This document shows, one piece after another, positions 3,629-36,588 of a stretch of DNA of 64,000 bases. Below the pieces are notes generated by a model. It saw nothing but the letters and a program-made list of their open reading frames with translations, was not told the origin of the DNA and ran no database searches. The translations under genes were made by a program, and so were the position numbers. The stretch spans positions 87,504 through 151,503 of the forward strand of contig JBMNTB010000001.1 in the NCBI GenBank assembly GCA_050945515.1. Direction: 5' to 3'. This DNA is from Saccharofermentanales bacterium. Its GTDB lineage: Bacteria; Bacillota; Clostridia; Saccharofermentanales; DTU023. Position 1 is the first letter of the stretch. Each line of letters opens with the position of its first letter.

Positions 3629-4825
3629 CTACCGATCACGAGCGGCCAAAGCTTGCAGCCTGCCCACATATTCCGTCCTTTCCCAAGGCAGATCCAGATC
3701 AGCGCGGCCAAAATGCCCATAGTTGGAAATCTGGCGATAGATGGGCCGTCTTAGATTGAAGGAACGAATAATAGCTTCCGGCCTGAGGTCAAACAGTTCT
3801 TCCACATATGATGACAGAAGCTGATCCGAAACCACACCCGTACCGAAGCTGTTCACATTGATCGAAACAGGATGCGCCACACCGATAGCATAGGCGATCT
3901 GAACTTCACAGGCATTGGCCAAGCCTGCGGCAACAATATTTTTGGCTACATGCCGGGCGGCATAACTGGCAGAGCGATCAACCTTGGTCGGATCTTTACC
4001 TGAAAAGGCGCCGCCGCCGTGATGGGCAAAACCGCCGTAAGTATCGCAGATGATCTTGCGCCCCGTCAGCCCCGTATCACCCTGCGGCCCGCCGATAACA
4101 AAGCGCCCGGTCGGATTGATAAAAATCTTGGTATCTGCGTCAAACAGCTCCGCCGGCAGAGAAGGTGTGATTACTTCCTCTATCACCAATTCCCTGAGCT
4201 CAGACAAAGTGACCCCTTCCGCATGCTGGGTGGAGACAACTACGGTATCGATATGGACCGGCCGATCATCGCAATAAGCCACCGTGACCTGAGCCTTGCC
4301 GTCAGGATAAAGGATATCCGATGAAGTAGATCTTCTGACCTCAGCCAACCGTTTCGTCAGGCGATGAGCCAAAACGATCGGTAACGGCATCAGTTCTTCG
4401 GTATCTCTATTGGCATAACCGAACATTAGCCCCTGATCTCCGGCACCGGTACTGTAAGTATCTTCCTGACCTTCACGATACTCCAGAGCCTGGTCAACAC
4501 CCATAGAAATATCCGGTGACTGTTCATCGATACTGAGGATAACAGCACAGCTGTCAGCATCGAAGCCGCCTTTATCGCGGGTATAGCCGATATCGCGCAC
4601 AGTATTGCGGGCAATTTGAGCAATATCCACATATGAAGTGGTTGAAATCTCGCCCATAACCATAATCAGGCCGGTAGTTGCAACTGTTTCGCAGGCAACC
4701 CTGGCCATCGGATCATTCTGCAGAATGGCGTCAAGCACGGCATCGGACACCTGATCGCATAATTTATCCGGATGGCCCTCCGTTACAGACTCCGAAGTGA
4801 ACAGCCAAATTCTATTATCTTTCAT
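3629..4825 (-). CDS. metK: S-adenosylmethionine synthetase
   Basis: 398-aa ORF with MetK hallmarks: [35 protein letters not shown]. Confidence 0.97.
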
Positions 4826-4882: not shown

Positions 4883-4895
4883 GGAAACTAGTGAC

Positions 4896-4998
4896 CTCAT
4901 CTGCCAGACCACACTGTGGTCTGCTGGAATTGGCACCGCTGCTTTCCGCGGTTGCCGGGCTTCACAGGGCCAGTCCCTCCGCCTCTCTTGATAAGATG
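4896..4998 (-). ncRNA. SAM-I (S-box) riboswitch
   Basis: Minus strand reads TCTTATCAAGAGAGGCGGAGGGACTGGCCCTGTGAAGCCCGGCAACCGCGGAAAGCAGCGGTGCCAATTCCAGCAGACC...GGCAGATGAG. This matches the conserved S-box core (CTTATCAAGAG-GG-GGAGGGACTGGCCC-GAAGCCCGGCAACC-GGTGCCAATTCC-AGATGAG) and sits in the 5' leader of metK. Confidence 0.9.
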
Positions 4999-8377: not shown

Positions 8378-8471
8378 TGATGGTTGATAATGATGGCAGA
8401 ATCAGTTTTTGCGCAATTTATATCTGATATACTGATGTTCTAAGGCAGTAATTACTTTGATATCAGGGGTA

Positions 8472-9725
8472 ATGATGAAGAAACAATCCAGAAAGCCGGA
8501 GCGGAAGATTTTGCCCGTCCTGCTGGGCACTGATCTCAATACTTACGGGGTTGCAGTACAATTTCATGCTGCTTACGGCATTAAATCACTGGCTATCGGC
8601 AAGAGCAGACTGGTCTTTACAGAAGAGTCCAAGATTATTGATGTTATTACTTTTCCCAACTTTGACCAGCCGGATACTTTTGTGGCAACACTGGTTAGAG
8701 AGGGTCAGAGATTAAAGCAGCAATATGATCATCTAATCCTGTTGGCCGCCAATGACAATTATGCCGAGTTGGCCATCAGGCATCAGGCTCAACTGGCAGA
8801 CCTTTTTCACTTGCCTTTCGTCTCTGAAACTCTGATGGAAAATCTGATGCTGAAAGATCGTTTTTATGAGCTTTGTGACCGGCACGGCCTGGCCTATCCG
8901 GAGACAGTTGCAGTCAGAGCCTGTGATGCGCCTTTTGATCTGAGCCTGCCCTTTACTTATCCTGTGATCTGTAAGCCCTCCAATTCCACCACTTACTTTC
9001 CTTTGGATTTTCCCGGGAAAGAGAAGGCCTATTTTGTCGAAGACGCAGAGCGACTCAAGCAGATCTTAGCTCTGGTTTATGGCCAAGGCTATCCGGATGC
9101 CATGATTGTCCAAGACTATATTCCGGGCGATGATACTTGCGGTCTGGTCGCCAATGGTTACTGTGACCAAGAGGGCAGAGTACGGATGTTGTCTTTGGGC
9201 AGGCCGATTCTGGAAGATCCGACTCCGATTTACATCGGCAATTATGCAGCTATACGCGATATAAAAGCGCCGGACTTGGCACAGCGACTGACTGATTTCT
9301 TAGAAAAAATTGCTTTTACCGGCATGGTTAATGCTGACTTCAAATATGATCATCGCGATGGGCAATATAAAATTTTCGAGATAAATCTGCGCCAGGGTCG
9401 GGCCAGCAATTATACGATGCTTGCCGGTTGCAACTTAGCGGAAGCCTTGGTGACTGACTTAGTTGAGGGAACAGTCACAGCACCTGTCTATGACAATAAT
9501 CAATCTTTCCTATGGCTGTCTGTGCCCCCGGAAGTTGTTACGGCAATGACAGAGGATGAACAGTGCAGAGACTTCGCTGCACAGATGATTAAGAATCGCA
9601 ATTATCTTGTCTGCTACCGCTATCGACCCGATCTGAGCTTAAAACGCCGCCTTATGCTGGACAGATATGATAAACAGCTATTGCTGCGTTATCGGCAGCA
9701 TTTTGTGCCTCGCCGACTAAGATAG
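8472..9725 (+). CDS. ATP-grasp carboxylate-amine ligase, D-aspartate-ligase (Asl)-like family candidate
   Basis: ORF 8457..9725; I prefer the ATG at 8472. ATP-grasp layout with MIVQDYIPGDD and FEINLRQGRAS motifs, and LLGTDLNTYGVA near the N-terminus. About 420 aa, and sits 8 nt upstream of a FemAB-family gene. The family assignment is from memory and has not been searched. Confidence 0.6.
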   Translation: MMKKQSRKPERKILPVLLGTDLNTYGVAVQFHAAYGIKSLAIGKSRLVFTEESKIIDVITFPNFDQPDTFVATLVREGQRLKQQYDHLILLAANDNYAELAIRHQAQLADLFHLPFVSETLMENLMLKDRFYELCDRHGLAYPETVAVRACDAPFDLSLPFTYPVICKPSNSTTYFPLDFPGKEKAYFVEDAERLKQILALVYGQGYPDAMIVQDYIPGDDTCGLVANGYCDQEGRVRMLSLGRPILEDPTPIYIGNYAAIRDIKAPDLAQRLTDFLEKIAFTGMVNADFKYDHRDGQYKIFEINLRQGRASNYTMLAGCNLAEALVTDLVEGTVTAPVYDNNQSFLWLSVPPEVVTAMTEDEQCRDFAAQMIKNRNYLVCYRYRPDLSLKRRLMLDRYDKQLLLRYRQHFVPRRLR

Positions 9726-9733
9726 GAGAGAAT

Positions 9734-10729
9734 ATGAGCAGAATTGACTGTAATGACCAACAAGCTCTGGAACGCTATGATGCTTTTTTGCAACAGTCGC
9801 CTTGGGCTACTTTCTATCAGGACCGCGGTTGGGCCTGTGTAAAAAACAATTGGCAATCGGCCTATTTTATTTATGAGAGAGAAGATGCAGTTGTTGGCGC
9901 TGTATCTGCCTTAAGTATTAAAGCCGCCAATGGCCATCCCTTTATTTATTGCAGTAGAGGACCGGTGATTGATCCGGACGATATTGCTATCTGGCGGGAT
10001 ATGTTAGCTGAGCTTAGAGCCTATGCTCAGGAAATCAAGGCTTTTTATGTTCGTTTTGATCCGGAATTGGCAGCCGATCCTCATCTGGTACAGTTTTTTA
10101 CCGGCCTGGGTCTAGTCGTACGCTCTGAGAATTTGCCCCTGAAGACTTTCACCCAACCACGTTGCAATGCCGTTTTAGACTTAGAGGGGAAAAGTGCTGA
10201 AAAAATTCTGATGGGCTTTGATGCCAGAAAGCGTTACGATATCCGGGTTGGCTTGAAGCATAATATCAGTTATAGACAGGGCCGTGATGAGAATACTCTC
10301 ACCATTTTTTCACAGATGATAGACAGTATGTCTGAACGCAAGGGTATCGCTATGCGGGATAAAGCTTATTTTCAGCGTTTGCTAACGGCTTTCCCCACAT
10401 CCTGCATTACCCTTGCCAGCTATGAGGGAACGGACATCTGTGGTGCTTTAATGTTGCCTTATGGTCGTAAAATAACATTTCTCTATGCGGCATCATTAGA
10501 CATATATAGATCAATTCAGGCCCCCAATGCCTTGCTTTGGCATCTGATAGAACAGGCACTAGACCAAAAATATACTGCTTTCGATTTAGGCGGTGTATTT
10601 GGCTTGGATGGATCATGCCCGCTCTATGCCTACAAGAAAGGCTTCGTTAAACAGGAAGGAATAACTTGCTATATCGGTGAGCTGGATCTGGTATTGTCAG
10701 AAGAACTTTATGCAGACTTCATCTCATAA
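9734..10729 (+). CDS. FemAB-family peptidoglycan bridge-formation aminoacyl-tRNA transferase
   Basis: 331-aa ORF with RBS AGGAGAG. Typical FemAB N-terminus (..YDAFLQQSPWATFYQDRGWACVKNNW..) and a GNAT-like C-half (..ALMLPYGRKITFLYAASL..APNALLWHLIE..). Confidence 0.8.
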   Translation: MSRIDCNDQQALERYDAFLQQSPWATFYQDRGWACVKNNWQSAYFIYEREDAVVGAVSALSIKAANGHPFIYCSRGPVIDPDDIAIWRDMLAELRAYAQEIKAFYVRFDPELAADPHLVQFFTGLGLVVRSENLPLKTFTQPRCNAVLDLEGKSAEKILMGFDARKRYDIRVGLKHNISYRQGRDENTLTIFSQMIDSMSERKGIAMRDKAYFQRLLTAFPTSCITLASYEGTDICGALMLPYGRKITFLYAASLDIYRSIQAPNALLWHLIEQALDQKYTAFDLGGVFGLDGSCPLYAYKKGFVKQEGITCYIGELDLVLSEELYADFIS

Positions 10730-10742
10730 TCCTGTTTCTAAT

Positions 10743-10772
10743 TTGACAGAAAAGGGTCCGGGTTAGTATAAT
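10743..10772 (+). promoter_or_regulatory. Candidate sigma-A promoter of the rpmH operon
   Basis: TTGACA (10743-10748), 18-nt spacer, TATAAT (10767-10772), about 95 nt upstream of rpmH. Confidence 0.5.
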
Positions 10773-10867: not shown

Positions 10868-11005
10868 ATGCCTAAAAGAACCTATCAGCCGAAGAAACGG
10901 CAGCGAAAAAGAGAACACGGTTTTCGCAAGAGAATGCTAAAAGCCTCAGGTCGCAAAATCCTGGCCAGAAGACGACTCAAGGGAAGAAAAAGACTCTCAC
11001 ACTAA
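10868..11005 (+). CDS. rpmH: 50S ribosomal protein L34
   Basis: Below the ORF-track size cutoff. My translation is [45 protein letters not shown], with RBS AAGGAGGAG 6 nt upstream and rnpA following. Confidence 0.95.
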
Positions 11006-11032
11006 GACCGCAGACTATGTGGTCTTTTTTTT
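11005..11032 (+). terminator. Intrinsic terminator/attenuator between rpmH and rnpA
   Basis: AGACCGCA-GACTA-TGTGGTCT stem (8 bp including one G-U pair) followed by a T-tract of 8, which abuts the rnpA ATG. Confidence 0.6.
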
Positions 11033-23787: not shown

Positions 23788-23864
23788 GGCGCAGTAGTTC
23801 AGTTGGTTAGAATGCCAGCCTGTCACGCTGGAGGTCGTGGGTTCGAGCCCCATCTGCGTCGCCA
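23788..23864 (+). tRNA. tRNA-Asp (GTC)
   Basis: Hand-folded cloverleaf: acceptor GGCGCAG/CTGCGTC, D-stem GTTC/GAAT, anticodon stem CCAGC/GCTGG with loop CTGTCAC, T-arm GTGGG-TTCGAGC-CCCAT, encoded CCA. Confidence 0.95.
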
Positions 23865-23891
23865 AATCGCCGGTCATTAGACCGGCGATTT
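23865..23891 (+). other. Perfect 11-bp hairpin between the two tRNAs (processing site or weak terminator)
   Basis: AATCGCCGGTC-ATTA-GACCGGCGATT followed by TATT. It fills the whole spacer. Confidence 0.4.
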
Positions 23892-23894
23892 ATT

Positions 23895-23970
23895 GCCCAG
23901 ATAGCTCAGTCGGTAGAGCAGTGGACTGAAAATCCACGTGTCGTTGGTTCGATTCCGACTCTGGGCACCA
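23895..23970 (+). tRNA. tRNA-Phe (GAA)
   Basis: Acceptor GCCCAGA/TCTGGGC, D-arm GCTC-AGTCGGTA-GAGC, anticodon stem GTGGA/TCCAC with loop CTGAAAA, T-arm GTTGG-TTCGATT-CCGAC, encoded CCA. Confidence 0.95.
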
Positions 23971-24407: not shown

Positions 24408-25586
24408 CTAACGATAGACTATCCTGTCCCGTCCCTCTCGTTTGGCACGGTAGAGGTTTTTGTCCGCGGCTTCTATAAAGCCAGAGTAAGAGATCCCCTT
24501 GACATAACTACTGAGTCCGCCTGAAATTGTGACCGGCTTACCATGGGTCCAGCCATGTGTCCTTATATAATCGGCAAGCGCCCGCACTTTGGGCAGTGCT
24601 TCCCTCGGGGTTTTGCCTGGAAACAGAACTACAAATTCTTCGCCGCCATATCGACCGAAAATCTCTCCTCCTGTCAGACTGGCCTTCATGATCTGAGCAA
24701 TATTGAACAGGACTTCGTCACCATAATCGTGCCCGTAAGTGTCGTTTATTACTTTAAAATGGTCAATGTCCAGGATGCAAAGCGTCAAGTGCGCGCCTGT
24801 GTCGTAGGCCTGGCGCATTTCCTCGTCTATGCTCGCTGATAGGAAGCGGCGATTATATAAGCCGGTCAGGGCATCGGTCAGCGAGAGGATCTCCAAGCGA
24901 TGCACCAAGCGCGTCTTTTCATCCCGCACCCTCACATATTGCCCCATCACCGTGTAAACTAAAATAGTATTGACCATGAAACTCATGGTCAGACCGAACG
25001 CCATATCTGAATACTGGTCGAAACGGGTGGCATACGGTATGACAATATCCGGGAAACGGTATTCCAGCGCAATAAAGGCAACCAACATGATCGTGTCAGC
25101 GACTAGCATAACGGTGCGTAATGCTCCTTTGAAAACGATAGCTATACATATGCCGGCCGTGAACATCATAGGTGGGGTGGAGCCGGTCACACCACCGATT
25201 GTGAACCATAGAAAAGGAATTAATATAAACGCGGAGGAGCCCAAGACAATCACTGCAGCTCCGTACCAACGATTTTTGACTATACTATATAAAACACATG
25301 AAACGGTTGACACGAGGTACAACGAGAGTACCGGTAACGTAAATATGCCTAAGTCATTTGCAATATTATAACCGAGTCCGAATATGGCCATAAAGATACC
25401 GGCGAAAGCAGTGTACAAAAATACAAGGTGATCCAGCGGCAACTCTTTATAGTAAACTTGTTTAAGCGTTCTTTTGAGCAAACTCATTGTTGTTTGCTTA
25501 GAGGTGTTTTCCCCTTTATCTTCTATTTTTTTAAAGTCATTTTGCATTACCACCATATCCTCCTTGTCAGTACTACTTGGATCCAA
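24408..25586 (-). CDS. Membrane-bound diguanylate cyclase (multi-TM N-terminal domain + GGDEF)
   Basis: 392-aa ORF with about 6 hydrophobic helices, then LTDALTGLYNRR, active-site GGEEF (RYGGEEFVVLF), and a C-terminal DKNLYRAKREGRDR. No RxxD I-site is visible 5 residues upstream of GGEEF. Confidence 0.85.
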   Translation of the reverse strand: MDPSSTDKEDMVVMQNDFKKIEDKGENTSKQTTMSLLKRTLKQVYYKELPLDHLVFLYTAFAGIFMAIFGLGYNIANDLGIFTLPVLSLYLVSTVSCVLYSIVKNRWYGAAVIVLGSSAFILIPFLWFTIGGVTGSTPPMMFTAGICIAIVFKGALRTVMLVADTIMLVAFIALEYRFPDIVIPYATRFDQYSDMAFGLTMSFMVNTILVYTVMGQYVRVRDEKTRLVHRLEILSLTDALTGLYNRRFLSASIDEEMRQAYDTGAHLTLCILDIDHFKVINDTYGHDYGDEVLFNIAQIMKASLTGGEIFGRYGGEEFVVLFPGKTPREALPKVRALADYIRTHGWTHGKPVTISGGLSSYVKGISYSGFIEAADKNLYRAKREGRDRIVYR

Positions 25587-25829
25587 AAAAGGGGATCAAT
25601 TTCCAGTGGTTATCAGCGTATTCTTTATGGCTGTTTCAAAACAGCCTACACTACCATATTATACTCATTCCCGTCAAAAGATACATTACGAACTATTTGT
25701 TTCGGTGGCAGGACCGTGTTTTTAGATAAAACTACCCTAATTTATAGTTAATTATTTTAAACTATAGTTTATAATTAAGGATAGAAAATAAAGAGTCTGG
25801 ATTAAGGATTGGAAAGGAGGTTTGACGCT

Positions 25830-26687
25830 ATGAAAAAAGCGATTAAGGTTCTTATTATCCTACTGGTGATATCGTTTATACCGCTTGCAGTGCAAGCACA
25901 ACCTGGTTCACAACCGCATCCCGATCCCTATAGTGGTGATTTAAGCAATTATGACGGCAAATGGATTATCGATGGGAAAACGGAGCAGGACACGAATTGG
26001 ACGCTGGAAATATCCGGCGATAAGTATCATTTACACAATGAATACAATGACTATAAGGGCGATATCCTCTTTACGCCCGGAAATGAAAAATTAGATACAC
26101 CTGATACCTTGTGGCTGGATTTTGATCCTGACGTCCAAATTGAAGTAGTGCTTATCAATCAAGCCGGTGGTCTGATCGATATTTCCGGACAGGGTCTGTA
26201 TTTTGTCAAGCCCGGCAATCGTATCGAATTTGATGAAGTGGAGGAATGGGAAAACTACTCAAAAGAGGACATGGTCGGCGATTGGGTCCTGGATTCACTG
26301 TGGGCAATTATTGTTCAATTAGATTTTTATCTGGAATTAACTAACGAGGATATCATGCAGGGAAGCATAACAGGGGATGATCGTCTTATTTTGAGCTTTG
26401 ATAACGGAATTTTGTACGAAGTCTCCGAAAAGTTGGAAATTCGCGTTCCGATCACCCGTTACAGATATTGTGGCCGCTACATTTATTTTGAAAACCCGAA
26501 TCCGATCGAACCTGTTGCTTACAAATTCTTGGCACATATTGTGCCTGATAGTAGTGACTTAGGTGACGCAGGACAGTTGATCATCAGTCCTTCTCCCATA
26601 CCGGATATGGATGACGGTCTCGAATTAATCATGTTTCTGACCTTTTCACGCATCACAAGTGTTGATCAGACAGAAGGGAGTGAATAA
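25830..26687 (+). CDS. Hypothetical secreted protein
   Basis: ORF 25809..26687. The ATG at 25830 follows GGAGG by 8 nt. Signal peptide MKKAIKVLIILLVISFIPLAVQA. No motif recognised. Confidence 0.6.
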   Translation: MKKAIKVLIILLVISFIPLAVQAQPGSQPHPDPYSGDLSNYDGKWIIDGKTEQDTNWTLEISGDKYHLHNEYNDYKGDILFTPGNEKLDTPDTLWLDFDPDVQIEVVLINQAGGLIDISGQGLYFVKPGNRIEFDEVEEWENYSKEDMVGDWVLDSLWAIIVQLDFYLELTNEDIMQGSITGDDRLILSFDNGILYEVSEKLEIRVPITRYRYCGRYIYFENPNPIEPVAYKFLAHIVPDSSDLGDAGQLIISPSPIPDMDDGLELIMFLTFSRITSVDQTEGSE

Positions 26688-26690
26688 TCA

Positions 26691-28130
26691 ATGAAAAGAG
26701 TATTTTTGCTGATACTTTCGCTACTTGTCCTCTTCAGCATGGCGGCCTGCTCTTCGTCGCAGCCGGGGAATAAAGGGACGCTGTCTGAGCATCCGGCAGG
26801 CAAAAATGCTGAAGATCCTCAGGCGGAGATTCCTGAGGAATATTGCTTAAAGACTAATATTCCCGCCGATTGGCATGACCCTCTGCCTTCGTCGGAATAC
26901 GCCGGTGATTTTCCCTTATTCGGCCTGGGAGCGCTGGTGGATGGCACACAGGAGGGCGTAAACTTACCCAAAGTCATAGATCTCTTCACCGTTGAAGAAC
27001 TGGAAGCGTATTTGGGCATGATCGTTTCCGTGGATGAAAACCTTTATTCTCTAGAGGGCGATGACGTTGAGCAATATTTTTTGCGTGAAACTGAAACAGC
27101 GATACCTGAACTCTGGGATGGAAAGATAAAAATCTGGCTTAAAGACTTAGGCAATCCGGCAGGTGTATCATTTTATTTGGAGCAGCTCTACCCTAATTCA
27201 CGCGAAATAGAGGATTTGGGAGAACACGCGATCATATCTACCTCCAATACTGTTATTATCCAAGTGAAAGGTGCGGTGATTGTGGGTATCTCTGCGGAAT
27301 TTAAACGCCCGGAGGATAGAGTAGCAGAACCGGCAGCAGAGAAATTTATGCTGGATTTGGCGCATTTTGTCTCTGATAGGCTGATAGAAAAAATGGCGTC
27401 TCCCGGCCAAGCCGGAGAAACGGATACCGAAACAGGGACTGCACAACAGGAAAACAAAAGCTTTAAGGCACTTGGGCCGGGAGAGTTCGAGGCCTATATA
27501 GACGAACTCGATTTAATAAAGGAATTTGTGGATGAGATAAATGATGAATGTTCCTCCGCTATTAATTTAAGACCAATCAGGTACCCTGAGTTTGAAAAAA
27601 TATTGACGAATTTAGCGCAGAAAGGCGGGCCGGATGTGTTTATCACATCGCAACCTTCCTTTTATGAAGAAGCCCTAAAACAAGACTTGTTCAGTGAGGG
27701 AGTGGTAGTTGCGTATGAAACGCCGGTGATTATGATACATGTTGGTAATCCCAAAGGAATTACAGGTTTAGCAGATCTTGCCAAGAAGGATATGAGGGTA
27801 GCAATGGCCGATCAAGACACTCCCGAGGGTCAAATGATCCGTGCTATGTTGGCAAAAGCCGGTATTACGGAGGAAGATTTCAGTGTCAGATCCCAATATG
27901 AAGTCAACTTCGATGCAGCTATTGTTTACCGTAATACTGTCAGCGCGAAGGAAAAAGAGGAGTATGAGTTCGTGGAAATTGAACCGGACTATTTAATGGA
28001 AAACCCCGTTTTGCTATTCGCGACCAAGTCAACCGAGCATCCTGAACTTGTTAACCAATTTACCGGCTTTATGCTCTCCGAAAGAGTGCAGCATTCGTTT
28101 GAAGTCTTTGGTTACCGACCTGTAAAATAA
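26691..28130 (+). CDS. Lipoprotein: unknown N-terminal domain fused to a ModA-like (type II periplasmic binding protein) C-terminal domain
   Basis: 479-aa ORF starting 3 nt after the upstream stop. Lipobox LFSMAAC. The C-terminal ~220 aa resemble molybdate/anion-binding PBPs (..GGPDVFITSQPSFYEEALKQDLF..VIMIHVGNPKGITGLADLAKKDMRVAMADQDTPEG..), but the first strand and its anion-binding Ser motif are not evident. Confidence 0.5.
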   Translation: MKRVFLLILSLLVLFSMAACSSSQPGNKGTLSEHPAGKNAEDPQAEIPEEYCLKTNIPADWHDPLPSSEYAGDFPLFGLGALVDGTQEGVNLPKVIDLFTVEELEAYLGMIVSVDENLYSLEGDDVEQYFLRETETAIPELWDGKIKIWLKDLGNPAGVSFYLEQLYPNSREIEDLGEHAIISTSNTVIIQVKGAVIVGISAEFKRPEDRVAEPAAEKFMLDLAHFVSDRLIEKMASPGQAGETDTETGTAQQENKSFKALGPGEFEAYIDELDLIKEFVDEINDECSSAINLRPIRYPEFEKILTNLAQKGGPDVFITSQPSFYEEALKQDLFSEGVVVAYETPVIMIHVGNPKGITGLADLAKKDMRVAMADQDTPEGQMIRAMLAKAGITEEDFSVRSQYEVNFDAAIVYRNTVSAKEKEEYEFVEIEPDYLMENPVLLFATKSTEHPELVNQFTGFMLSERVQHSFEVFGYRPVK

Positions 28131-28440: not shown

Positions 28441-29583
28441 ATGCAAAAAAGTAAGATTTCAAGAATAATTTCATCACTTCTGCTCGTGGCTATTTCTATT
28501 ATGGTAGTAGGTATAGTCGCTTGCGATTCAAACAAAACTGAAAGCACTACCGCAGCCCAAAACGCAGAAGCTGACAAGACTACCGCAGCCCAAAACGCGG
28601 AAGCTGACAAGACTACCGCAGCCCAGGAGACGGAAGAACCGAAAGCGAACACAAAGCCAATCGTTGTAACTTGGTATCCGAATGAATCATCCAGTACTCA
28701 TGATGAGGTGCGTGCGGAAGTCGGTAAATTAATTAAGCAGGCTACCGGCAGAGAGGTCGAACACAAATTGACGACCGACTACACCATAGCCATTGAAGCA
28801 ATCGCGAGCGGGGCGGCTGATATCGCTATTGCAATGGGCGCAGTCGGTTACATTGAGGCCAAGGAGCGTAATCCGGAGATTGATGTTCTCTTTGTCAACA
28901 GCGACGAGAATTGGAAATTAGATGGGGCCAAGTATTTTGCCTGGCTGTGCGTGCCTGCAGAAGATGCAGACCAATATAAAAGTGGAGATACTTACTCCAT
29001 CGACAACATAAAAGGGAAAAGGATGTCCTTTGTATCCAACAGTTCTACCTCCGGATTCAGAGTTCCTACTTCCTCAATTATTTCTCATTTTGCGAGTGAA
29101 AACTTGGATGAAGACAAATTGATTGAAGGCGGTCCCGACATGTTCTTCAGCGAAGTATTCTTCGGCGGCTCTCACCAAGGTTCAGCCGTTAATCTGCTCA
29201 GCGGCAATGTCGATGTTGCAGCTTTCTGCGATATCGAAGTGCAGCCCTATGTTGAAGCCAAAACCGGAGACGAAAGCACAGTCGGTTCGGTTTATACCGT
29301 AAGAGAAGGTGCCGATGCTCCTTTCGACCAATATGTGGGGAGAGACTTCACTATTATAGCGTCCACTCCTGTTTTTAACGGTCCCAATGTGTATAATCCT
29401 AAAAATTTGAGTGCTGAGGAAATACAAGCGATTAAAGATTTGTTTACTTCGGAAGAAGTTGCGAATAACAAGGTGCTGTTTTATGACGACAGCGTCGAAG
29501 GTGCGGTGGGATTGTACAAAAAATCCAAAAGTTATGGGTTTGTTCTCACGAGTGATTCATGGTACGACCCATATAGAAAATAA
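28441..29583 (+). CDS. phnD: Phosphonate ABC transporter substrate-binding lipoprotein (PhnD family)
   Basis: 380-aa ORF. Lipobox VGIVAC. PhnD-like core (..VTWYPNES.., ..MSFVSNSSTSGFRVP.., ..GGSHQGSAVNLLSGNVDVAA..). Followed by phnC and phnE. Confidence 0.8.
   Translation: MQKSKISRIISSLLLVAISIMVVGIVACDSNKTESTTAAQNAEADKTTAAQNAEADKTTAAQETEEPKANTKPIVVTWYPNESSSTHDEVRAEVGKLIKQATGREVEHKLTTDYTIAIEAIASGAADIAIAMGAVGYIEAKERNPEIDVLFVNSDENWKLDGAKYFAWLCVPAEDADQYKSGDTYSIDNIKGKRMSFVSNSSTSGFRVPTSSIISHFASENLDEDKLIEGGPDMFFSEVFFGGSHQGSAVNLLSGNVDVAAFCDIEVQPYVEAKTGDESTVGSVYTVREGADAPFDQYVGRDFTIIASTPVFNGPNVYNPKNLSAEEIQAIKDLFTSEEVANNKVLFYDDSVEGAVGLYKKSKSYGFVLTSDSWYDPYRK
28545..28627 (+). repeat. 33-bp tandem repeat (2.5 copies) encoding the TTAAQNAEADK linker of PhnD
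   Basis: ACTACCGCAGCCCAAAACGC(A/G)GAAGCTGACAAG at 28545-28577 and 28578-28610 (1 mismatch), with a partial third copy from 28611. Confidence 0.95.
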
Positions 29584-29601
29584 ATTTGAAGACATTGATA
29601 A

Positions 29602-30372
29602 ATGCCTATCTTAGAATTTAAAAATGTAAGCAAAGTATATAACAATATTACGAAAGCACTAACAGATATTTCTTTCTCGGTATACGAGGGTGAGTTCGTC
29701 TCTATTATCGGCCCCTCCGGTTCAGGCAAATCGACCATCCTGCGTTGCATCAACAGACTTGTTGATGTAACGCAGGGGTCAATTATATTTGACGGCCATG
29801 ATATCAATAAAGCGGATAAAAAAGAGATACGCCAAGTGCGCAAGAAGGCGGGCATGATCTTTCAGCATTACAATCTTGTAGATCGCCTTAGTGTCATTGA
29901 AAATGTTTTGCACGGACGGCTTGGTTATAAGTCAGTTATAAGTGGTGTTATTGGCCATTATACTGAGGAAGAGAAGGAAAAAGCCTTTCAGATTCTCGCA
30001 ATGCTCGGACTTACGGAACAGGCATATAAGCGATGTGATGAGTTGTCAGGCGGCCAAAAGCAACGAGTGGGCATCGCACGCTCTCTCATGCAGGAACCAA
30101 GACTGATTTTATGCGATGAGCCTATCGCATCTCTTGACCCCAGCTCATCCAAGATTATCATGGATCATTTGAGCGATATCAATGAAACGATGAAGATTAC
30201 CTGCATTGCTAATTTGCATCAGGTTGATGTCGCGTTGAAATACGCCAAAAGGATTATTGGCATCACCGCCGGACAAATAGTATATGATGGTCCGCCTGAA
30301 AAACTGACCAGATCAAAAATATATGAAATATATCAATCGGACGAAGGCGAATTAATTACGGATGTCAAGTAA
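29602..30372 (+). CDS. phnC: Phosphonate ABC transporter ATP-binding protein
   Basis: 256-aa ORF. Walker A GPSGSGKST, signature LSGGQKQRVGIARSL, Walker B LILCDEP. PhnC-type length and context. Confidence 0.9.
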   Translation: MPILEFKNVSKVYNNITKALTDISFSVYEGEFVSIIGPSGSGKSTILRCINRLVDVTQGSIIFDGHDINKADKKEIRQVRKKAGMIFQHYNLVDRLSVIENVLHGRLGYKSVISGVIGHYTEEEKEKAFQILAMLGLTEQAYKRCDELSGGQKQRVGIARSLMQEPRLILCDEPIASLDPSSSKIIMDHLSDINETMKITCIANLHQVDVALKYAKRIIGITAGQIVYDGPPEKLTRSKIYEIYQSDEGELITDVK

Positions 30373-31198
30373 GCAAATGGATAAAACAACAAAAAAAGCA
30401 CCCAGACCCAATAATCAAGTATCCGTGTTTGTACAGAGAAAACGCACATTTACCTTGGCATTTCTTGGCGTGGCTATGCTTTTTGTGGTATCCGCTGTTG
30501 TGACCAATTATGAAATTATTGGTGGTCTTGAGTCAATTCCCAAAGCTGTCATCTGGATGGCCCAAAATTTTGTTCCTAATGCCAAGGCATGGTCAAGACT
30601 CCCTTATATACTCTCTAAATTAGTGGAAACCGCGCTTGTATCGGTAGCTGTCACCGTATGTGCTGCCATATGTGCGTTCTTCTTTAGCTTACTAGGAACA
30701 AAAACTACGAAAACGGCTCCCTGGATCGCAGGAATAGTCAGGATTATTGCAGCGTTTTTCAGAAATGTACCGGATGTAGTCTGGGCCATACTTTTGCTAT
30801 TCTCTTTCGGCCAAAATATCCTAACAGGATTTTTTGCCTTATTTTTTTCCACTTTTGGTATGTTGACGCGGACATTTATTGAAACCATAGATGAGGTCAG
30901 CGCATCCTGTGTGGAAGCACTGTATGCCACGGGCGCTACCTCCCTCCAAACTGTATTTAACGGCGTCATCCCCTCGTCACTGCCCGAAATAGTTTCCTGG
31001 GTTTTGTATATGATCGAAACAAATATCCGTTCATCTACATTGATCGGCATTCTTACAGCAACAGGAATTGGTTATTTGTTCGATCTTTACTACAAACGTA
31101 TGGATTACAGTTCAGCAAGCCTCGTCGTCATTTCTATTGTGATACTGGTTATCGCTATAGAGATACTGTCGAATAAAATCAGAAAGGTGATTATGTAA
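30362..31198 (+). CDS. phnE: Phosphonate ABC transporter permease
   Basis: 278-aa ORF whose start overlaps the phnC stop. Multi-TM protein with a PhnE-like EAA loop (..ETIDEVSASCVEALYATGATSLQTVFNGVIP..). Confidence 0.85.
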   Translation: MSSKQMDKTTKKAPRPNNQVSVFVQRKRTFTLAFLGVAMLFVVSAVVTNYEIIGGLESIPKAVIWMAQNFVPNAKAWSRLPYILSKLVETALVSVAVTVCAAICAFFFSLLGTKTTKTAPWIAGIVRIIAAFFRNVPDVVWAILLLFSFGQNILTGFFALFFSTFGMLTRTFIETIDEVSASCVEALYATGATSLQTVFNGVIPSSLPEIVSWVLYMIETNIRSSTLIGILTATGIGYLFDLYYKRMDYSSASLVVISIVILVIAIEILSNKIRKVIM

Positions 31199-32067
31199 TG
31201 AGTGAGCTTGATATCGCGAGCCGGCCTCCAGTTTCTTTGGATATAGTCAAATATATGCGAAAGACTCGCGGTGGCAAAATCAAAACTGCAACCAAATCGA
31301 AAAGCAATCGTGCCATTAAAATAACGCTATTTGTCTTGCTGGCTCTTACCATATATGGCTTTTTAACCTTTGATTATAAAAACGTCGATATAGCGAATGC
31401 CATGGCCGGCACTTGGAACAATGTCAAAGTATTGTTCGGTCAACCGAAGTTGACATACGGTACTTGGGGCGGATCATTAAAGGCATTGTTTGTGACATTT
31501 TCTCTCGGTGCACTTGCTACTATTTTTGGGGCAATGATAGCTTTTTTCGGCTCCTTGTTGTGTGCTAAGAATATCGCTAATCCATATGTAGCCAATATTA
31601 CAAAGAGCTTCGTTGCCTTTATAAGGGCAGTGCCGACAATATTGTGGGTCTTGATTTTCACAGTTGCAGCGGGTCTGGGCAGTGTTGCAGCCGTTATTGG
31701 CTTGACTTTCCACAGTGCCGGTTACTTGATCAAAGCATATGCCGAATCCATCGAAGAGATGGACGAAGGTACTATCGAGGCTTTAAAAGCCAGTGGCGCG
31801 AGTTTCTGGCAAATTGTGTTTCAAGCTATTCTCCCTTCCTCTATCAGCCGCATGACAGCATGGACATTCCTGCGCTTTGAAATAAATTTTACCAATGCGC
31901 TGGCCGTGGGTGCGGCAGCAGGAGTGGGCGGTATCGGCTTTGATTTGTACATGGCCGGCAACCATTACTTTGATCTTCGCGAGCTGGGATACATCACATA
32001 TATTGTCGTAGCCGCGGTGATTTTGCTGGAAATGATAGCAACAAAAATAAAAGCGACTGTGAGATAA
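31198..32067 (+). CDS. phnE: Phosphonate ABC transporter permease (second copy)
   Basis: 289-aa ORF with TAATG overlap onto the previous gene. EAA loop ..ESIEEMDEGTIEALKASGASFWQIVFQAILP.. Confidence 0.85.
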   Translation: MSELDIASRPPVSLDIVKYMRKTRGGKIKTATKSKSNRAIKITLFVLLALTIYGFLTFDYKNVDIANAMAGTWNNVKVLFGQPKLTYGTWGGSLKALFVTFSLGALATIFGAMIAFFGSLLCAKNIANPYVANITKSFVAFIRAVPTILWVLIFTVAAGLGSVAAVIGLTFHSAGYLIKAYAESIEEMDEGTIEALKASGASFWQIVFQAILPSSISRMTAWTFLRFEINFTNALAVGAAAGVGGIGFDLYMAGNHYFDLRELGYITYIVVAAVILLEMIATKIKATVR

Positions 32068-32111
32068 GGACGCCGACAATAGCTATTTAAATTTACGAAA
32101 GAACTCTGATA

Positions 32112-33104
32112 ATGCAACAAACTTTTTATGATTTTTCAGCATTTGAATTATTAAAAGATAAAAAACCGTTATTGGTGTGTGATGATGCTTTTGATTCATT
32201 TGGCATTGAGTTTCCTTGTGAAGTTACAAGATTCAGTGATTTCACTTCCAATCCGGATTATGAGGATATAAAGTCAGGAGTAAAAGTTTTAAGAAAGAAC
32301 AAATGTGACTTTATTGTAGCCATTGGCGGCGGGAGCAGCATCGACACCGCCAAGAGCATTAAATACTACAATCATATCAATCTGCCTCTAATGGCTGTCC
32401 CTACAACTTCCGGCACCGGCAGCGAAGCAACTCACTTTGCTGTCATATATAGAAACGGCAAAAAACAATCCGTTGCCGATGAAAGACTCTTGCCGGAATA
32501 TGTTATTTTACAGGCCGACACGCTCAAAACACTGCCCTTGTATCAAAAAAAGTGCACCATGCTTGATGCTCTCTGCCAGGCAATTGAGTCTTGGTGGTCA
32601 AAAAAAGCAACGCAAGAAAGCATTCTATATTCCCAAAAAGCCATCTATCTGATTCTCAGTAATATGGAAAGCTATTTGCATAATGATAATGATGGCAATA
32701 CTAAAATGCTTGTTGCTGCCAATTTAGCAGGCAAAGCGATCAATATCACTACTACAACCGCACCCCATGCTATGAGTTATAAGCTAACCTCCCTTTATGG
32801 ACTGCCGCATGGCCATGCTGTTGCTATCTGTCTGCCCAAAGTATGGCGGTACATGGAGAATTTTGATTACATCGCAAAGGCGCTGGGCACAGAACATTAT
32901 GAAGATGCGGTTTCACTTTTTGAGGAAATGCTGTTAGAACTGGAAATCTTGCCACCTCAAAACGTAAATGAGGACGATTTAGATATCCTGACCAATTCGG
33001 TAAATCGTCAAAGACTAAGCAACAATCCGGTTAGACTTAATAAAAGTACCATAAAAAAATTATATAAAGAGATTTTGGAGACTGAATATGGCGGAGAAAA
33101 TTAA
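32112..33104 (+). CDS. Short iron-containing alcohol dehydrogenase family protein; candidate phosphonoacetaldehyde/2-hydroxyethylphosphonate oxidoreductase or acetaldehyde reductase
   Basis: 330-aa ORF. IGGGSSIDTAKS motif, VPTTSGTGSE, and metal His residues (..APHAMSYKLTSLYGLPHGHAVA..). Its stop overlaps the phnX-phnW start by 17 nt. The substrate assignment is inferred from context only. Confidence 0.6.
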   Translation: MQQTFYDFSAFELLKDKKPLLVCDDAFDSFGIEFPCEVTRFSDFTSNPDYEDIKSGVKVLRKNKCDFIVAIGGGSSIDTAKSIKYYNHINLPLMAVPTTSGTGSEATHFAVIYRNGKKQSVADERLLPEYVILQADTLKTLPLYQKKCTMLDALCQAIESWWSKKATQESILYSQKAIYLILSNMESYLHNDNDGNTKMLVAANLAGKAINITTTTAPHAMSYKLTSLYGLPHGHAVAICLPKVWRYMENFDYIAKALGTEHYEDAVSLFEEMLLELEILPPQNVNEDDLDILTNSVNRQRLSNNPVRLNKSTIKKLYKEILETEYGGEN

Positions 33105-34920
33105 GGCAGTAATTTTCGATTGGGCCGGAACCACAGTAGACTATGGTTGTTTCGCACCGGTAAAAGGCTTTATAGATGGGTTTAACAGTATCGGTATAGA
33201 TATTACCAATGAAATGGCGCGCAAGCCGATGGGCTTATTGAAGATCGACCATACCAGGGCGATTGCCGCCATGCTGCCGGAGCCGATTTCCGAAGAACAA
33301 ATTTTACAGGCCTATGAAGTATTTGAAGAAACTCTCTTTACTAATATTGAACAGCACTGCGATATTAAGGACTATGTTACAGAAACAGTTGCTGCTCTGC
33401 GGGAGCAAGGAATCAAAATCGGTTCCACTACAGGGTACACAGCCGCTATGATGGAACGCGTTTTGCCCAAAGCTAAGGAGAATGGATTTTCCCCCGATTT
33501 CTGTATCAGTGCCGACCAGGTTGCCAAAGGCAGGCCGTATCCGTACATGATTTGGAATAATCTCATGCAGTTCGGCATTTCGGATCCGAGAGAAGCCATA
33601 AAAGTCGGGGATACAGTCGCTGATATAGCAGAGGGTAAAAATGCCGGTTGTTGGACTGCAGGTGTCATTATGGGCTCGTCGGAACTCGGACTTACACGCG
33701 ATGAAGTTGCCGCTTTGTCAGAAGAGGAGTTGAAAGAGCGAAAGACTATTGTGCGCGCAGCGTATTACAAGGCCGGAGCTGATTATATAATTGACGATAT
33801 GAACGAACTTTTAGATGTTATTGCCGATATAAACCGCAAACTGGATCAAAATGCTGCCCGGATTTTACTGACACCCGGTCCTCTGACAACACGCCATTCC
33901 GTGAAGCATGCTATGCTTACCGATCATTGCACCTGGGATGATACATATAAAGCGATCACAACTTCAGTGCTGAACGATATTACATATATTTCTGCCAACA
34001 ATGATTATGCTACCGTTTTATTGCAAGGCAGCGGTTCATATGCGGTAGAAGCCATGATCAATAGTCTGTGCGGGGAAAACGAAAAAATCCTGTTTTTAGT
34101 GAACGGCGAGTATGGCAGACGGATGTTAACTATTGCCGATAATTCGGGCAAAGATTATGAATGTTTAGTGTTTGACATGACCCGGCCGATAGATGTTTCA
34201 GTGGTTAAAGAAAGATTAAAAAAAGGCCCAAACATTGCTGTGGTTGTATTTGTTCATTGTGAAACCACAACCGGTATTATGAATCCTCTGGTAGAATTGA
34301 CGAAACTTGCCAAATCATATGGCGCTAAGGTTTTTGTCGATGCCATGTCCAGCTTTGCAGCTTATGAGATCGATATGCCGGGTCTTGATATTGATGCGCT
34401 GGCGGCAAGTTCCAACAAGTGTCTGGAAGGATTGCCCGGGCTGGCTTTTGTCATAGCGAAGAAAACACTGATAGAGGAGAGTTGCGGCAATTCTGTATCT
34501 CACAGTCTTGATCTGTTTGATCAATATCAAGGTTTATATGCGGGCGGCGGCAAGTTCCGCTTTACCTCGCCGACCAATGTCTTGCTGGCGCTGAGACAGG
34601 CGATTGACGAATATAAGAAAGAAGGCGGACTGATAGCCCGCAGAAAGCGCTATATGGCAAATAATGAAATTCTGGTGCGGGGACTCGAAAAACTTGGTAT
34701 CCGACCCATAATCGCACCTGAAAATCAATCCTATATTATTACAACCTTTGAACTGGGGAATCTTAATTTCGCCACGTTATACGAAGCACTTAAGTCCAAT
34801 GGATTTATTATCTATCCAGGCAAACTAACCTCAATGCCAACATTCAGATTGGGTAATATCGGCAATGTATATCCTGAGGATATGGTTGCGCTTGTAGCTG
34901 CCATCGAAGAATGTATTTGA
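33088..34920 (+). CDS. phnX-phnW: Fused phosphonoacetaldehyde hydrolase (PhnX, HAD) / 2-aminoethylphosphonate:pyruvate aminotransferase (PhnW)
   Basis: 610-aa single ORF. The N-terminal ~265 aa are PhnX-like (AVIFDWAGTTVDYGCFAP, KPMGLLKIDH, GSTTGY, GRPYPYM, KVGDTVADI). The C-terminal ~345 aa are PhnW-like (LLTPGPLTT, DHCTWDD, PLP-Lys region SSNKCLEGLPGLAFV). Confidence 0.85.
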   Translation: MAEKIKAVIFDWAGTTVDYGCFAPVKGFIDGFNSIGIDITNEMARKPMGLLKIDHTRAIAAMLPEPISEEQILQAYEVFEETLFTNIEQHCDIKDYVTETVAALREQGIKIGSTTGYTAAMMERVLPKAKENGFSPDFCISADQVAKGRPYPYMIWNNLMQFGISDPREAIKVGDTVADIAEGKNAGCWTAGVIMGSSELGLTRDEVAALSEEELKERKTIVRAAYYKAGADYIIDDMNELLDVIADINRKLDQNAARILLTPGPLTTRHSVKHAMLTDHCTWDDTYKAITTSVLNDITYISANNDYATVLLQGSGSYAVEAMINSLCGENEKILFLVNGEYGRRMLTIADNSGKDYECLVFDMTRPIDVSVVKERLKKGPNIAVVVFVHCETTTGIMNPLVELTKLAKSYGAKVFVDAMSSFAAYEIDMPGLDIDALAASSNKCLEGLPGLAFVIAKKTLIEESCGNSVSHSLDLFDQYQGLYAGGGKFRFTSPTNVLLALRQAIDEYKKEGGLIARRKRYMANNEILVRGLEKLGIRPIIAPENQSYIITTFELGNLNFATLYEALKSNGFIIYPGKLTSMPTFRLGNIGNVYPEDMVALVAAIEECI

Positions 34921-35079: not shown

Positions 35080-36588
35080 TCAATGCCGGGCATCGTAGTT
35101 GGCGACAAGCTCACGGGCAATGGATACATCGGATTGAACCGGAACGTAGTCATCACCGCGCATCTGACTGCTTTCATCGCCTTTGCCCAGAATCAGGAGC
35201 AGAGTTTTATCCCGGGCGGCATTAAAAGCGGTACGGATAGCTTCTTTGCGGTCCGCAATGATCTCATACTTGCCGTTGACAGATTCGATATAGTGCCCAA
35301 CTTCCCGCGAGATGTCCTCGACGGACTCATAGCGGGGGTCTTCCTCCGTCAGATAGATATAATCAGCCAGCCTGCCTGCGACCAAGCCCAGATCCTGCCT
35401 GCGGCTGATACCCTTGGAGCCGGGGCAGCCGAAGATTGCGACCTGTTTGTAGCCGGGGAAATCATGCCTGGTCGTTTCGAACAGCTTTTCAAATGAGAGT
35501 TTATTGTGTGCGTAATCGACCAAAGCCACGATTTTCCTGTCCGCGGTGGCAAAGACTTCCATCCTGCCGGCGGTGCGGGCAGTGAGCGCTCCGGCTTGCA
35601 TGAACTCAAGCGGGCAGCCCAGCAGATAGGCGATAGAGATCGCAGCCAGCACATTTTCGATATTGAACAATCCCAGCATACCTATCTCGAAAGGGAAAGT
35701 GCCTTCCGGCAGCTTGACATCAAAGCTATAACCCAACCCTTTACTCTGCACATTTGCAGCTACCACATCGGCCAGATCATCACGACAGGAATAATACAGC
35801 AGCTGATTGTCTTGCTGCACTGCCGCAGCGGAGATAGTGTTCAGTTCGGGCAGGTCACGATTTATCACCGCCCGTTTGCTGTGCTCGAAGATGCGCAATT
35901 TGGCAGTGAAATAATCAGCAAAATCATGATGTTCAATGGCGCTGATATGATCTTCCGCAATATTCAGGAAGGCGGCGACATCAAGCTTGATACCATCTAA
36001 ACGATGGTATTTCAAGCCCTGTGATGAAACTTCCATGACCAGATAGCGGATATCACTGCTGCGCGCCTGGTGCAAATGACGGTAGAGCTCCATAGCCTCC
36101 GGTGTGGTCAGATGCGACTCAAAACACTCGACTCCGTCATAAGTATTAATAGTTGAAATGAAGGCGACATCTGGTTGTCCGGCGTCATTTTGCCACAGGT
36201 TAAGCATCTCCCTCAAGAAGTACAAGGTGGTGGACTTACCTTTAGTACCGGTGATGCCAATGATGCTGATATCCTGTTCCGGATGGTTGTAGTAGCGTTG
36301 AGCCAGCAGCGGCATGGCCTCACGAACATCGTGGACTATGATATGAGGTAAATCCGACAGGATGGCGCCTTCGGTAATATAAGCAACAGCACCCTTGGCA
36401 ATAGCTTGTTGCAGATATGCGGGCTTGAAGGCGCTGCCTTTACAGACAAACAGGCTGCCCGGCGTGACTTGCCTGGAGTCGTAGGTCAGACCGGTGATCA
36501 AGGGATTGTCGCCCAACTTGCTTCGGCTGACCAGAGCACCGAGGTCGTGAGCATATTCTGCTAGTTTATATCGTTCGAGTACAGCCAT
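35080..36588 (-). CDS. murE: UDP-N-acetylmuramoyl-L-alanyl-D-glutamate ligase MurE (third-residue amino acid uncertain)
   Basis: ORF 35080..36813. The ATG at 36588 follows GGAGGAG and gives a typical 503-aa MurE (LTYDSRQVTPGSLFVCKG, GITGTKGKSTT, DYAHN). The motif at the DNPR position reads EDPR. Confidence 0.9.
   Translation of the reverse strand: MAVLERYKLAEYAHDLGALVSRSKLGDNPLITGLTYDSRQVTPGSLFVCKGSAFKPAYLQQAIAKGAVAYITEGAILSDLPHIIVHDVREAMPLLAQRYYNHPEQDISIIGITGTKGKSTTLYFLREMLNLWQNDAGQPDVAFISTINTYDGVECFESHLTTPEAMELYRHLHQARSSDIRYLVMEVSSQGLKYHRLDGIKLDVAAFLNIAEDHISAIEHHDFADYFTAKLRIFEHSKRAVINRDLPELNTISAAAVQQDNQLLYYSCRDDLADVVAANVQSKGLGYSFDVKLPEGTFPFEIGMLGLFNIENVLAAISIAYLLGCPLEFMQAGALTARTAGRMEVFATADRKIVALVDYAHNKLSFEKLFETTRHDFPGYKQVAIFGCPGSKGISRRQDLGLVAGRLADYIYLTEEDPRYESVEDISREVGHYIESVNGKYEIIADRKEAIRTAFNAARDKTLLLILGKGDESSQMRGDDYVPVQSDVSIARELVANYDARH

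Follow-up and report, generated by a model that had tools for sequence, protein, structure and literature searches.

The locus and its two enzymes

The present analysis deals with a stretch of 64,000 nucleotides from a Saccharofermentanales bacterium (assembly GCA_050945515.1, contig JBMNTB010000001.1, positions 87,504 to 151,503 of the forward strand), hereafter called the window, in which the gene of an ATP-grasp ligase of the D-aspartate ligase (Asl) type directly precedes that of a FemX-type aminoacyl-tRNA-dependent transferase. The two genes recur as a pair in other genomes, and their products may act in series on the side chain of peptidoglycan. The features on which the argument relies are the following, in window coordinates.

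8378 to 8471, + strand: spacer of 94 nucleotides between comF and the ligase gene, with a Shine-Dalgarno-like AGGGG about 5 nucleotides before the ATG at 8472
8472 to 9725, + strand: Asl-family (D-aspartate-ligase-type) ATP-grasp carboxylate-amine ligase gene, 417 amino acids plus stop
9724 to 9729, + strand: ribosome-binding site AGGAGA of femX, overlapping the ligase stop codon TAG (9723 to 9725)
9734 to 10729, + strand: gene of the FemX-type aminoacyl-tRNA-dependent transferase, 331 amino acids, ATG start, no coiled-coil insertion
10743 to 10772, + strand: sigma-70 promoter TTGACA-18-TATAAT of the next unit, matching 12 of 12 consensus positions, at the 3' boundary of the pair
about 10868 to 11005, + strand: rpmH (L34) open reading frame (ORF), the first gene after this promoter
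35080 to 36813, - strand: MurE (UDP-N-acetylmuramoyl (MurNAc)-tripeptide synthetase) gene, unlinked to the pair, with EDPR for DNPR

The ORF coordinates leave an intergenic gap of 8 nucleotides (9726 to 9733), as had been noticed in an earlier reading made from the letters alone (the sequence-only reading). The same reading had singled out the motifs LLGTDLNTYG, MIVQDYIPGDD and FEINLRQGRAS, all three of which are present in the ATP-grasp translation, and had given the protein 418 residues, a length that counts the stop codon, the ORF being otherwise as described. Its start at ATG 8472 is matched by the N-termini of the homologs in an alignment of 22 sequences, and for this reason an alternative start at TTG 8457 is unlikely. 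Since the femX ribosome-binding site overlaps the ligase stop codon, the arrangement suggests that the two genes are co-transcribed, and they are probably translationally coupled. Upstream of the pair lie recD2 and comF, and a promoter scan detected no sigma-70-like site with at least 9 of 12 matches in the 94-nucleotide spacer before the ligase gene, so that transcription could possibly read through from recD2-comF or start at a weak promoter. On the other side, the consensus promoter and rpmH immediately after femX indicate that the pair ends at 10729, the following unit being rpmH-rnpA-yidD-yidC-jag-mnmE-mnmG-rsmG. A terminator-like hairpin at 11004 to 11026 overlaps the end of rpmH and the start of rnpA. 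An Rfam scan of the window found no regulatory RNA near the pair, its matches being a S-adenosylmethionine (SAM) riboswitch at metK, one cyclic di-GMP (c-di-GMP)-I riboswitch and two tRNAs.

The locus is syntenic, with 94-100 % protein identity, with the metagenome-assembled genome (MAG) 'Clostridiaceae bacterium AS23ysBPME_119' and with a 149-kb metagenome contig from the Joint Genome Institute (JGI), and the next relatives are Mageeibacillus MAGs at 70 % identity. The GC content at third codon positions (GC3) is 0.495 for the ligase gene and 0.419 for femX, compared to 0.52-0.61 in the neighboring housekeeping genes. Together with the differing contexts of the pair in its relatives, this lower GC3 hints that horizontal transfer brought the cassette to its place between comF and rpmH.

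Regarding the ligase, a search of a collection of 5.8 billion proteins returned 433 matches, among which the named homologs are called 'D-aspartate ligase' or 'carboxylate--amine ligase' and are 38-44 % identical to it across 92-100 % of the length; they come from Enterococcus, Lactobacillus delbrueckii, Vagococcus, Dolosigranulum and Alloscardovia. This supports the Asl-type identity put forward in the sequence-only reading, with the proviso that the comparison was with proteins that owe these labels to NCBI and JGI. Membership of an unrelated ATP-grasp clade, such as the cyanophycin, glutathione or RimK-type enzymes, was also considered and rejected: the homology check returned none of these as best homologs, the true homologs belong to the Asl family, and the matches to Pfam and NCBIfam models are generic and weak, with none above cut-off and only ATPgrasp_Ter and PRK12767 below it. 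Ten residues are invariant in 22 diverse members of the family (K168, Q214, G219, D221, D289, K291, E303, N305, R307 and R310), and the motifs that they form, K168, Q214-x4-G219-x-D221, D289/K291 and E303-x-N305-x-R307, are typical of ATP-grasp enzymes and expected to bind ATP and Mg2+. In the same line, the AlphaFold2 model is of high confidence (predicted local distance difference test 91.9, predicted template modeling score 0.90), and its Foldseek comparison with the PDB gave 507 matches at E<=1e-3, the 50 listed being all ATP-grasp enzymes. Among those listed, at 12-15 % identity, are PylC, L-amino-acid ligases, PurK and biotin carboxylase. PylC is the top match (E 7e-16, template modeling (TM) score 0.52-0.62) and, like the activity considered here, joins the carboxyl group of a D-amino acid to the epsilon-amine of lysine; however, it is only 15 % identical, and PurK, biotin carboxylase and the L-amino-acid ligases score equally, which reflects a generic likeness of fold rather than family membership. 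The PDB holds no solved structure of the ligase family, the best phmmer match being VanA at E 0.14. Taken together, these data support the assignment of the protein as a full-length Asl-family ATP-grasp enzyme.

The comparison with Asl_fm of E. faecium and AslA of L. lactis shows both likenesses and differences. The window ligase is 39-40 % identical to Enterococcus proteins named D-aspartate ligase, has the same size (about 410-420 amino acids), ATP-grasp fold and conserved catalytic motifs, and belongs to a family whose members are linked to Asp racemase and AsnB genes, like aslA-racD/asnH (PMC4155827). In contrast, it falls in a separate clade whose members precede femX and not a racemase directly, it has no racemase nearby, and its acceptor may be the product of FemX rather than bare Lys.

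The femX product matches the FemAB family model PF02388 with 140.7 bits against a cut-off of 24, and aligns nearly end to end with the FemX of Weissella viridescens (FemX_Wv; PDB 1xf8/4ii9, E 3.5e-51; residues 5-330 against 4-333 of 1xf8), whereas S. aureus FemX (6snr, 420 amino acids) and FemA (1lrz, 426 amino acids) match only residues 13-219, which represent the N-terminal two thirds. The FemAB-family, tRNA-dependent nature attributed to the protein by the sequence-only reading can thus be narrowed, by homology, to a FemX_Wv-type transferase, an assignment that the data support. Besides sharing its length class and the lack of a coiled-coil insertion with the W. viridescens enzyme (PDB 1NE9, 1P4N, 4II9), the window FemX keeps its five key residues, K37, D109, R208, Y212 and K301 corresponding to K36, D108, R211, Y215 and K305 of FemX_Wv, an enzyme in which Lys305 too has a role. 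The first four are invariant and K301 is nearly so in a set of 11 FemX proteins, made up of nine whose genes adjoin a ligase gene and two database homologs of unchecked context. A difference is found at F304 of FemX_Wv, which is replaced by Tyr. In FemX_Wv, Lys36 and Arg211 bind the phosphates and the D-Ala-D-Ala end of UDP-MurNAc-pentapeptide (PMC2655667). In view of the conservation of these binding residues, the window FemX most likely works on this soluble nucleotide precursor, and is probably a cytoplasmic enzyme.

Recurrence of the pair across ligase-family loci

In order to place the pair in its family context, 88 ligase-family loci were compared, their neighboring genes being scored by tblastn and racemase and AsnB genes being counted within 3 kb. 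The counts and the FemX-linked loci are listed below.

TIGR00035-type Asp racemase within 3 kb: 49 of 88 ligase-family loci
AsnB-type amidotransferase within 3 kb: 44 of 88 ligase-family loci
Racemase and/or AsnB: 60 of the 76 loci in which FemX is not adjacent
FemX gene 9-31 nucleotides downstream of the ligase: 12 of 88 loci (tblastn census)
L001, L009 (window organism, twice): ligase-FemX
L002, L003 (Mageeibacillus MAGs): ATP-grasp paralog, racemase, ligase, FemX
L004, L005: a 61 % relative with ligase-FemX between ftsY and ylxM-ffh, and a 51 % relative with ligase-FemX
L010, L011, L013 (metagenome contigs): ligase-FemX
L007 (Vagococcus hydrophili, CP049887): AsnB-ligase-FemX-MreC-MreD
L019, L020 (metagenome contigs): MurE-AsnB-ligase-FemX-Peptidase_C39_2-racemase
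L094: MurE-AsnB-ligase-FemX-Peptidase_C39_2-racemase
L095: ligase-FemX, with a Peptidase_C39_2 gene between femX and racemase
L089 (Natranaerobius trueperi): ligase then FemX, gap of 15 nucleotides
L092 (Bhargavaea ullalensis): ligase then FemX, gap of 58 nucleotides, racemase about 3.5 kb further on

Four FemX-adjacent loci beyond the 12 of the tblastn census, with gaps of 15, 58, 16 and 16 nucleotides, bring the recurrence of the pair to at least 16 loci of unrelated genomic contexts, in which the two genes lie 9-58 nucleotides apart and the ligase precedes FemX in 16 of 16 cases. Such a recurrence in unrelated contexts indicates that the adjacency is not due to chance. The linkage is kept from 94 % down to about 40 % identity, and as the flanking genes differ between lineages, the pair is kept as a unit. 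A search with a single FemX protein (11 matches) was too insensitive for this purpose, and it was a FemX profile search that led to the Natranaerobius and Bhargavaea loci and to a Sporosarcina genome that carries a 34 %-identical ligase and a FemX gene 2 kb apart. Other arrangements exist as well: an Enterococcus locus (L008) has the classical ligase-racemase arrangement, and FemX homologs without a neighboring ligase are found in Anaerococcus (L091) and on an Enterococcus contig (L093).

All the FemX-adjacent ligases fall in one block of the neighbor-joining (NJ) trees, with a bootstrap of 100/100 for a core clade formed by the window, Mageeibacillus, L004 and L005. In a prospective test, FemX linkage was predicted for P0027 and P0015, two members of the block whose context was unknown beforehand, and both turned out to have FemX 16 nucleotides downstream, one of them within the full MurE-AsnB-ligase-FemX-C39_2-racemase arrangement. 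Altogether, 18 of the 19 leaves of this block are verified as FemX-linked.

The neighborhood of the family also bears on the substrate of the ligase. In the known module for the D-Asp/D-iso-Asn cross-bridge, aslA and racD form one operon and AsnH amidates afterwards (PMC4155827). The racemase and AsnB genes found around the ligase family match this module and point to D-Asp, so that, on the basis of homology and gene neighborhood, the ligase most likely ligates D-Asp as beta-aspartyl phosphate. As to the racemase that the sequence-only reading had suggested looking for, it is absent from the 64-kb window, but it lies directly upstream of the ligase in the 70 %-identical Mageeibacillus orthologs, where it scores 134 bits on TIGR00035 against a cut-off of 93.

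Two additional genes accompany the pair in some of the relatives. In Mageeibacillus, a second ATP-grasp paralog lies directly 5' of the ligase-FemX pair (L002, 935-2844; L003, 286-2192), overlapping the gene of the Asp racemase family. This paralog, of 393 amino acids and 24 % identity to the ligase, is CPSase_L_D2- and Dala_Dala_lig_C-like and possibly represents a second D-amino-acid ligase of the same wall pathway; it has no counterpart in the window. Besides, a Peptidase_C39_2 protein of about 390 amino acids is encoded between femX and the racemase gene in three independent modules (L019, 7322-8512; L094, 7444-8595; L095, 2363-3568) and might serve in maturation or as an endopeptidase specific for the bridge. 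The 396-amino-acid gene at this position in L019 had been considered as a second ATP-grasp gene, an assignment that was rejected as it encodes the Peptidase_C39_2 protein.

A proposed mixed cross-bridge and its alternatives

Conserved linkage, restriction to one clade, and the MurE, AsnB, racemase and MreCD neighbors in relatives all suggest that both enzymes serve one peptidoglycan side-chain pathway. With slightly better than even confidence, we propose that the cassette builds a two-residue mixed bridge of the A4-alpha type, L-Lys-X-D-Asp, FemX acting first and the ligase second. In the first step, the FemX-type enzyme would use aminoacyl-tRNA to add either glycine or an L-amino acid, with L-Ala as the default guess by analogy with FemX_Wv. 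In the second step, the Asl-type enzyme would ligate a D-dicarboxylic amino acid after activating it to the acyl phosphate; this residue would most likely be D-Asp, activated as beta-aspartyl phosphate. The product would be an L-Lys-X-D-Asp bridge whose free D-Asp alpha-amine would serve as the transpeptidation acceptor. The inferred elements of this scheme are the action on one shared side chain, the nature of the two residues added, the sequence in which they are attached and Lys at position 3. The order with FemX first is favored, since a FemX subfamily that also occurs without ligase, together with linked ligases that form a clade of their own, agrees with a generic FemX that works on Lys and with a ligase that has become adapted to what FemX makes.

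Mixed A4-alpha bridges have been used for decades in chemotaxonomy and are routinely reported in species descriptions. In the Schleifer-Kandler notation of such bridges, the L-residue is placed on Lys and D-Asp is N-terminal, so that the notation L-Lys-L-Ala-D-Asp also implies FemX first and the ligase second. The bridges L-Lys-L-Ala-D-Asp, L-Lys-Gly-D-Asp and L-Lys-Gly-D-Glu have the structure expected from the combination of a tRNA-delivered residue with an ATP-ligated D-dicarboxylic one; they differ from the present case in being chemotaxonomic descriptions. For L-Lys-L-Ala-D-Asp, the documented example is Sporosarcina highlanderae (PMC10628120), a member of the genus in which one genome has a ligase homolog and FemX 2 kb apart, and the term 'L-Lys-Gly-D-Asp' occurs in a Nesterenkonia jeotgali genome paper (PMC5288335). 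The mixed interpeptide bridge already suggested by the sequence-only reading is therefore strengthened as a prediction, both by the clade-specific linkage and by the existence of this chemotype. Stepwise growth of a side chain on Lys by FemAB-family enzymes is shared with BppA1/BppA2 of E. faecalis, MurM/MurN of S. pneumoniae and FemXAB of S. aureus, with the difference that all the steps of these systems are tRNA-dependent, whereas the cassette includes an ATP-grasp ligase.

The residue that the ligase-FemX pair would decorate is set by the window MurE, and presumably is Lys at position 3. The EDPR motif of this MurE aligns with DNPR in its counterparts from E. coli and from M. tuberculosis, Asn being replaced by Asp and Arg being kept. 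In DNPR, Asn and Arg bind the distal carboxylate of diaminopimelate (DAP), and S. aureus MurE has DNPA (PMC3829189). The motif of the window MurE is thus non-canonical and, as judged from the alignment, compatible with a residue other than DAP; similarity to the solved MurE structures in the PDB does not separate Lys from DAP specificity.

Several observations concern MurE itself. The window gene stands alone, outside a dcw cluster, and adjoins an LtaS/phosphoglycerol-transferase-like gene (36983-38692). Its ORF, read from a TTG, has about 95-100 extra N-terminal residues compared to MurE models and PDB chains, which makes it probable that the true start lies further downstream. A dcw cluster with MurE had also been considered at 53-61 kb, where the ORFs instead encode a ribokinase, an EF-G-like protein, a CNNM/CorC-type transporter and a PrsA-like protein. 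Finally, the MurE proteins heading the L019 (1607-3133) and L094 (1563-3047) modules have DNPK instead of DNPR; that of L019 passes the NCBIfam 'DAP ligase' equivalog model with 528 bits against a cut-off of 373, and the automatic annotation of these DNPK proteins as DAP-adding enzymes may be wrong.

A number of points weigh against the proposed pathway. If the two enzymes are canonical, one and the same Lys epsilon-amine is the target of both, and they could therefore compete rather than cooperate. In the NJ analysis, the first 12 FemX-linked ligases come out as monophyletic with a bootstrap of only 47/100, and no residue diagnostic of FemX-linked compared to other ligases was found at a within-group conservation of at least 70 %, so that the ligase sequence says nothing on a changed acceptor pocket. 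As a further difference from the W. viridescens enzyme, the window FemX scores 215.8 bits on NF047883 (UDP-MurNAc-pentapeptide-lysine N6-alanyltransferase), below the equivalog cut-off of 500, as does the FemX of L019 with 292.3 bits; the assignment of L-Ala is thus not secured, while the family homology is. The window MurE passes the murE subfamily model, but its 347 bits on the DAP model and 345.7 bits on the Lys model are both below the respective cut-offs. The sequence-only reading had taken the EDPR motif as an argument against a plain meso-DAP cross-link, and while the motif is indeed non-canonical, the equal scores on the Lys and DAP hidden Markov models render this argument weakly informative. 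In addition, the 64-kb window contains no homolog of the Asp/Glu racemase, of AsnB or of the C39 peptidase, and the source of the D-amino acid in this genome is therefore not seen there. Lastly, the literature search returned no muropeptide analysis of any cassette-carrying organism and no usable wall-type report for Vagococcus hydrophili, Bhargavaea or Mageeibacillus.

These points leave room for other explanations. The two enzymes might follow each other in the reverse order, the ligase placing D-Asp on the Lys epsilon-amine like Asl_fm and FemX then extending the alpha-amine of this D-Asp, or of D-iso-Asn, by an L-residue, which would give L-Lys-D-Asp-X and leave an L-amino acid as the free N-terminus. 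The position of the ligase gene ahead of FemX in every adjacent locus would suit this order, although gene order does not dictate reaction order, and the lack of a residue separating the FemX-linked ligases from canonical Asl is compatible with an unchanged Lys acceptor. Nevertheless, we consider the reverse order unlikely: the window FemX retains the FemX_Wv residues that position UDP-MurNAc-pentapeptide, its close relatives occur without a ligase, and no report of L-Lys-D-Asp-L-Ala was found in the literature search, whereas L-Lys-L-Ala-D-Asp is documented. Improbable to a similar degree is a parallel action of both enzymes on the same Lys epsilon-amine, resulting in a mixture of precursors bearing either D-Asp or the L-residue, or in a condition-dependent back-up, without any mixed bridge. 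The characterized prototypes of both enzymes do share this acceptor atom on UDP-MurNAc-pentapeptide (PMC2175331, PMC4155827), and D-Asp could be limiting given that no racemase is found in the window. However, a tight, probably translationally coupled linkage that persists over so wide a range of identities in unrelated contexts speaks against two independent activities, its restriction to one ligase clade would be hard to explain for competitors, and the presence of the pair inside MurE-AsnB-...-racemase operons suggests one pathway.

The enzymes could also cooperate with another substrate, either a different acid, for instance D-Glu to form L-Lys-X-D-Glu of the classical Sporosarcina ureae type, or L-Orn instead of L-Lys. 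A4-alpha walls with D-Glu are known in Sporosarcina and Anaerococcus, two genera in which close FemX homologs were found; moreover, neither Asp racemase nor AsnB lies near the pair in the window, and the FemX-linked clade has no experimentally characterized member. The Asp-racemase-family gene directly upstream of the ligase in Mageeibacillus and the AsnB and racemase genes carried by other members of the clade argue in the other direction, which leaves this possibility with a low probability. Even less credible, and in our view very improbable, is a target outside peptidoglycan, that is a peptide natural product, a teichoic acid or another envelope polymer. FemAB/GNAT-like aminoacyl transferases and ATP-grasp ligases are both known from secondary metabolism, and the ligase reaches the cut-off of no Pfam or NCBIfam model. 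But the window FemX is similar to FemX_Wv over its full length and keeps the residues that bind UDP-MurNAc-pentapeptide, relatives carry MurE, MreC/MreD, Asp racemase and AsnB genes around the pair, and no biosynthetic-cluster genes surround the window pair, whose flanks are recD2, comF and rpmH-rnpA.

Building on the favored L-Lys-X-D-Asp bridge with FemX first, a more far-reaching and tentative proposal, which we think somewhat more apt to fail than to hold, is that the FemX-linked Asl-type ligases constitute a distinct subfamily with the alpha-amine of the FemX-delivered residue as acceptor, the cassette being then the genetic basis of the mixed A4-alpha bridges (L-Lys-X-D-Asp/D-Glu). The two enzyme families are already known, as are their chemistry and the mixed A4-alpha wall types, and no new family, chemistry or mechanism is involved. 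As for the cassette, the literature search found no description of it or of a FemX-linked Asl subfamily, and no gene assignment for mixed A4-alpha bridges. If true, the proposal would add one of the rare examples of a single peptidoglycan side chain on which a step that depends on tRNA is firmly coupled in series to an ATP-grasp step. It would also offer a simple two-enzyme system for studying the evolution of acceptor specificity, both in ATP-grasp ligases and in Fem transferases. Transpeptidases, sortases, endolysins and bacteriocins such as lysostaphin-like enzymes all have their substrate defined by bridge chemistry, which also shapes the muropeptides met by host receptors. The cassette would be a sequence marker for the A4-alpha wall type in genomes and MAGs, including those of uncultured Oscillospirales-like bacteria from gut and digesters such as the present one, and the cultured carriers Vagococcus hydrophili, Bhargavaea ullalensis and Natranaerobius trueperi could be used for tests.

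Other features of the window

The tRNA genes of the window, tRNA-Asp(GTC) and tRNA-Phe(GAA), follow pepF as a tandem pair (23788-23970, + strand) without obvious connection to FemX; no tRNA-Ala, -Ser or -Gly gene is present in the 64 kb. The SAM (S-box) riboswitch (4894-4997, - strand, 88.5 bits) is located upstream of metK (3629-4825, - strand). The c-di-GMP-I riboswitch aptamer (60988-61097, + strand; 39.4 bits against a gathering threshold of 35) is found downstream of the PrsA-like gene, and a GGDEF diguanylate cyclase gene occupies 24408-25586 on the - strand. Two ORFs at 25809-28130, which have no NCBIfam match, precede a cluster for the uptake and breakdown of phosphonate (2-aminoethylphosphonate, 2-AEP) at 28441-34920 (+ strand), whose GC content of 42-44 % compares with 49 % for the window. 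PhnX is a phosphonoacetaldehyde hydrolase and PhnW a 2-AEP-pyruvate transaminase, and the two are fused in this cluster into one protein of 610 amino acids, next to genes for a PhnD-like protein, PhnC, two PhnE proteins and an Fe-ADH-like (iron-dependent alcohol dehydrogenase) protein.

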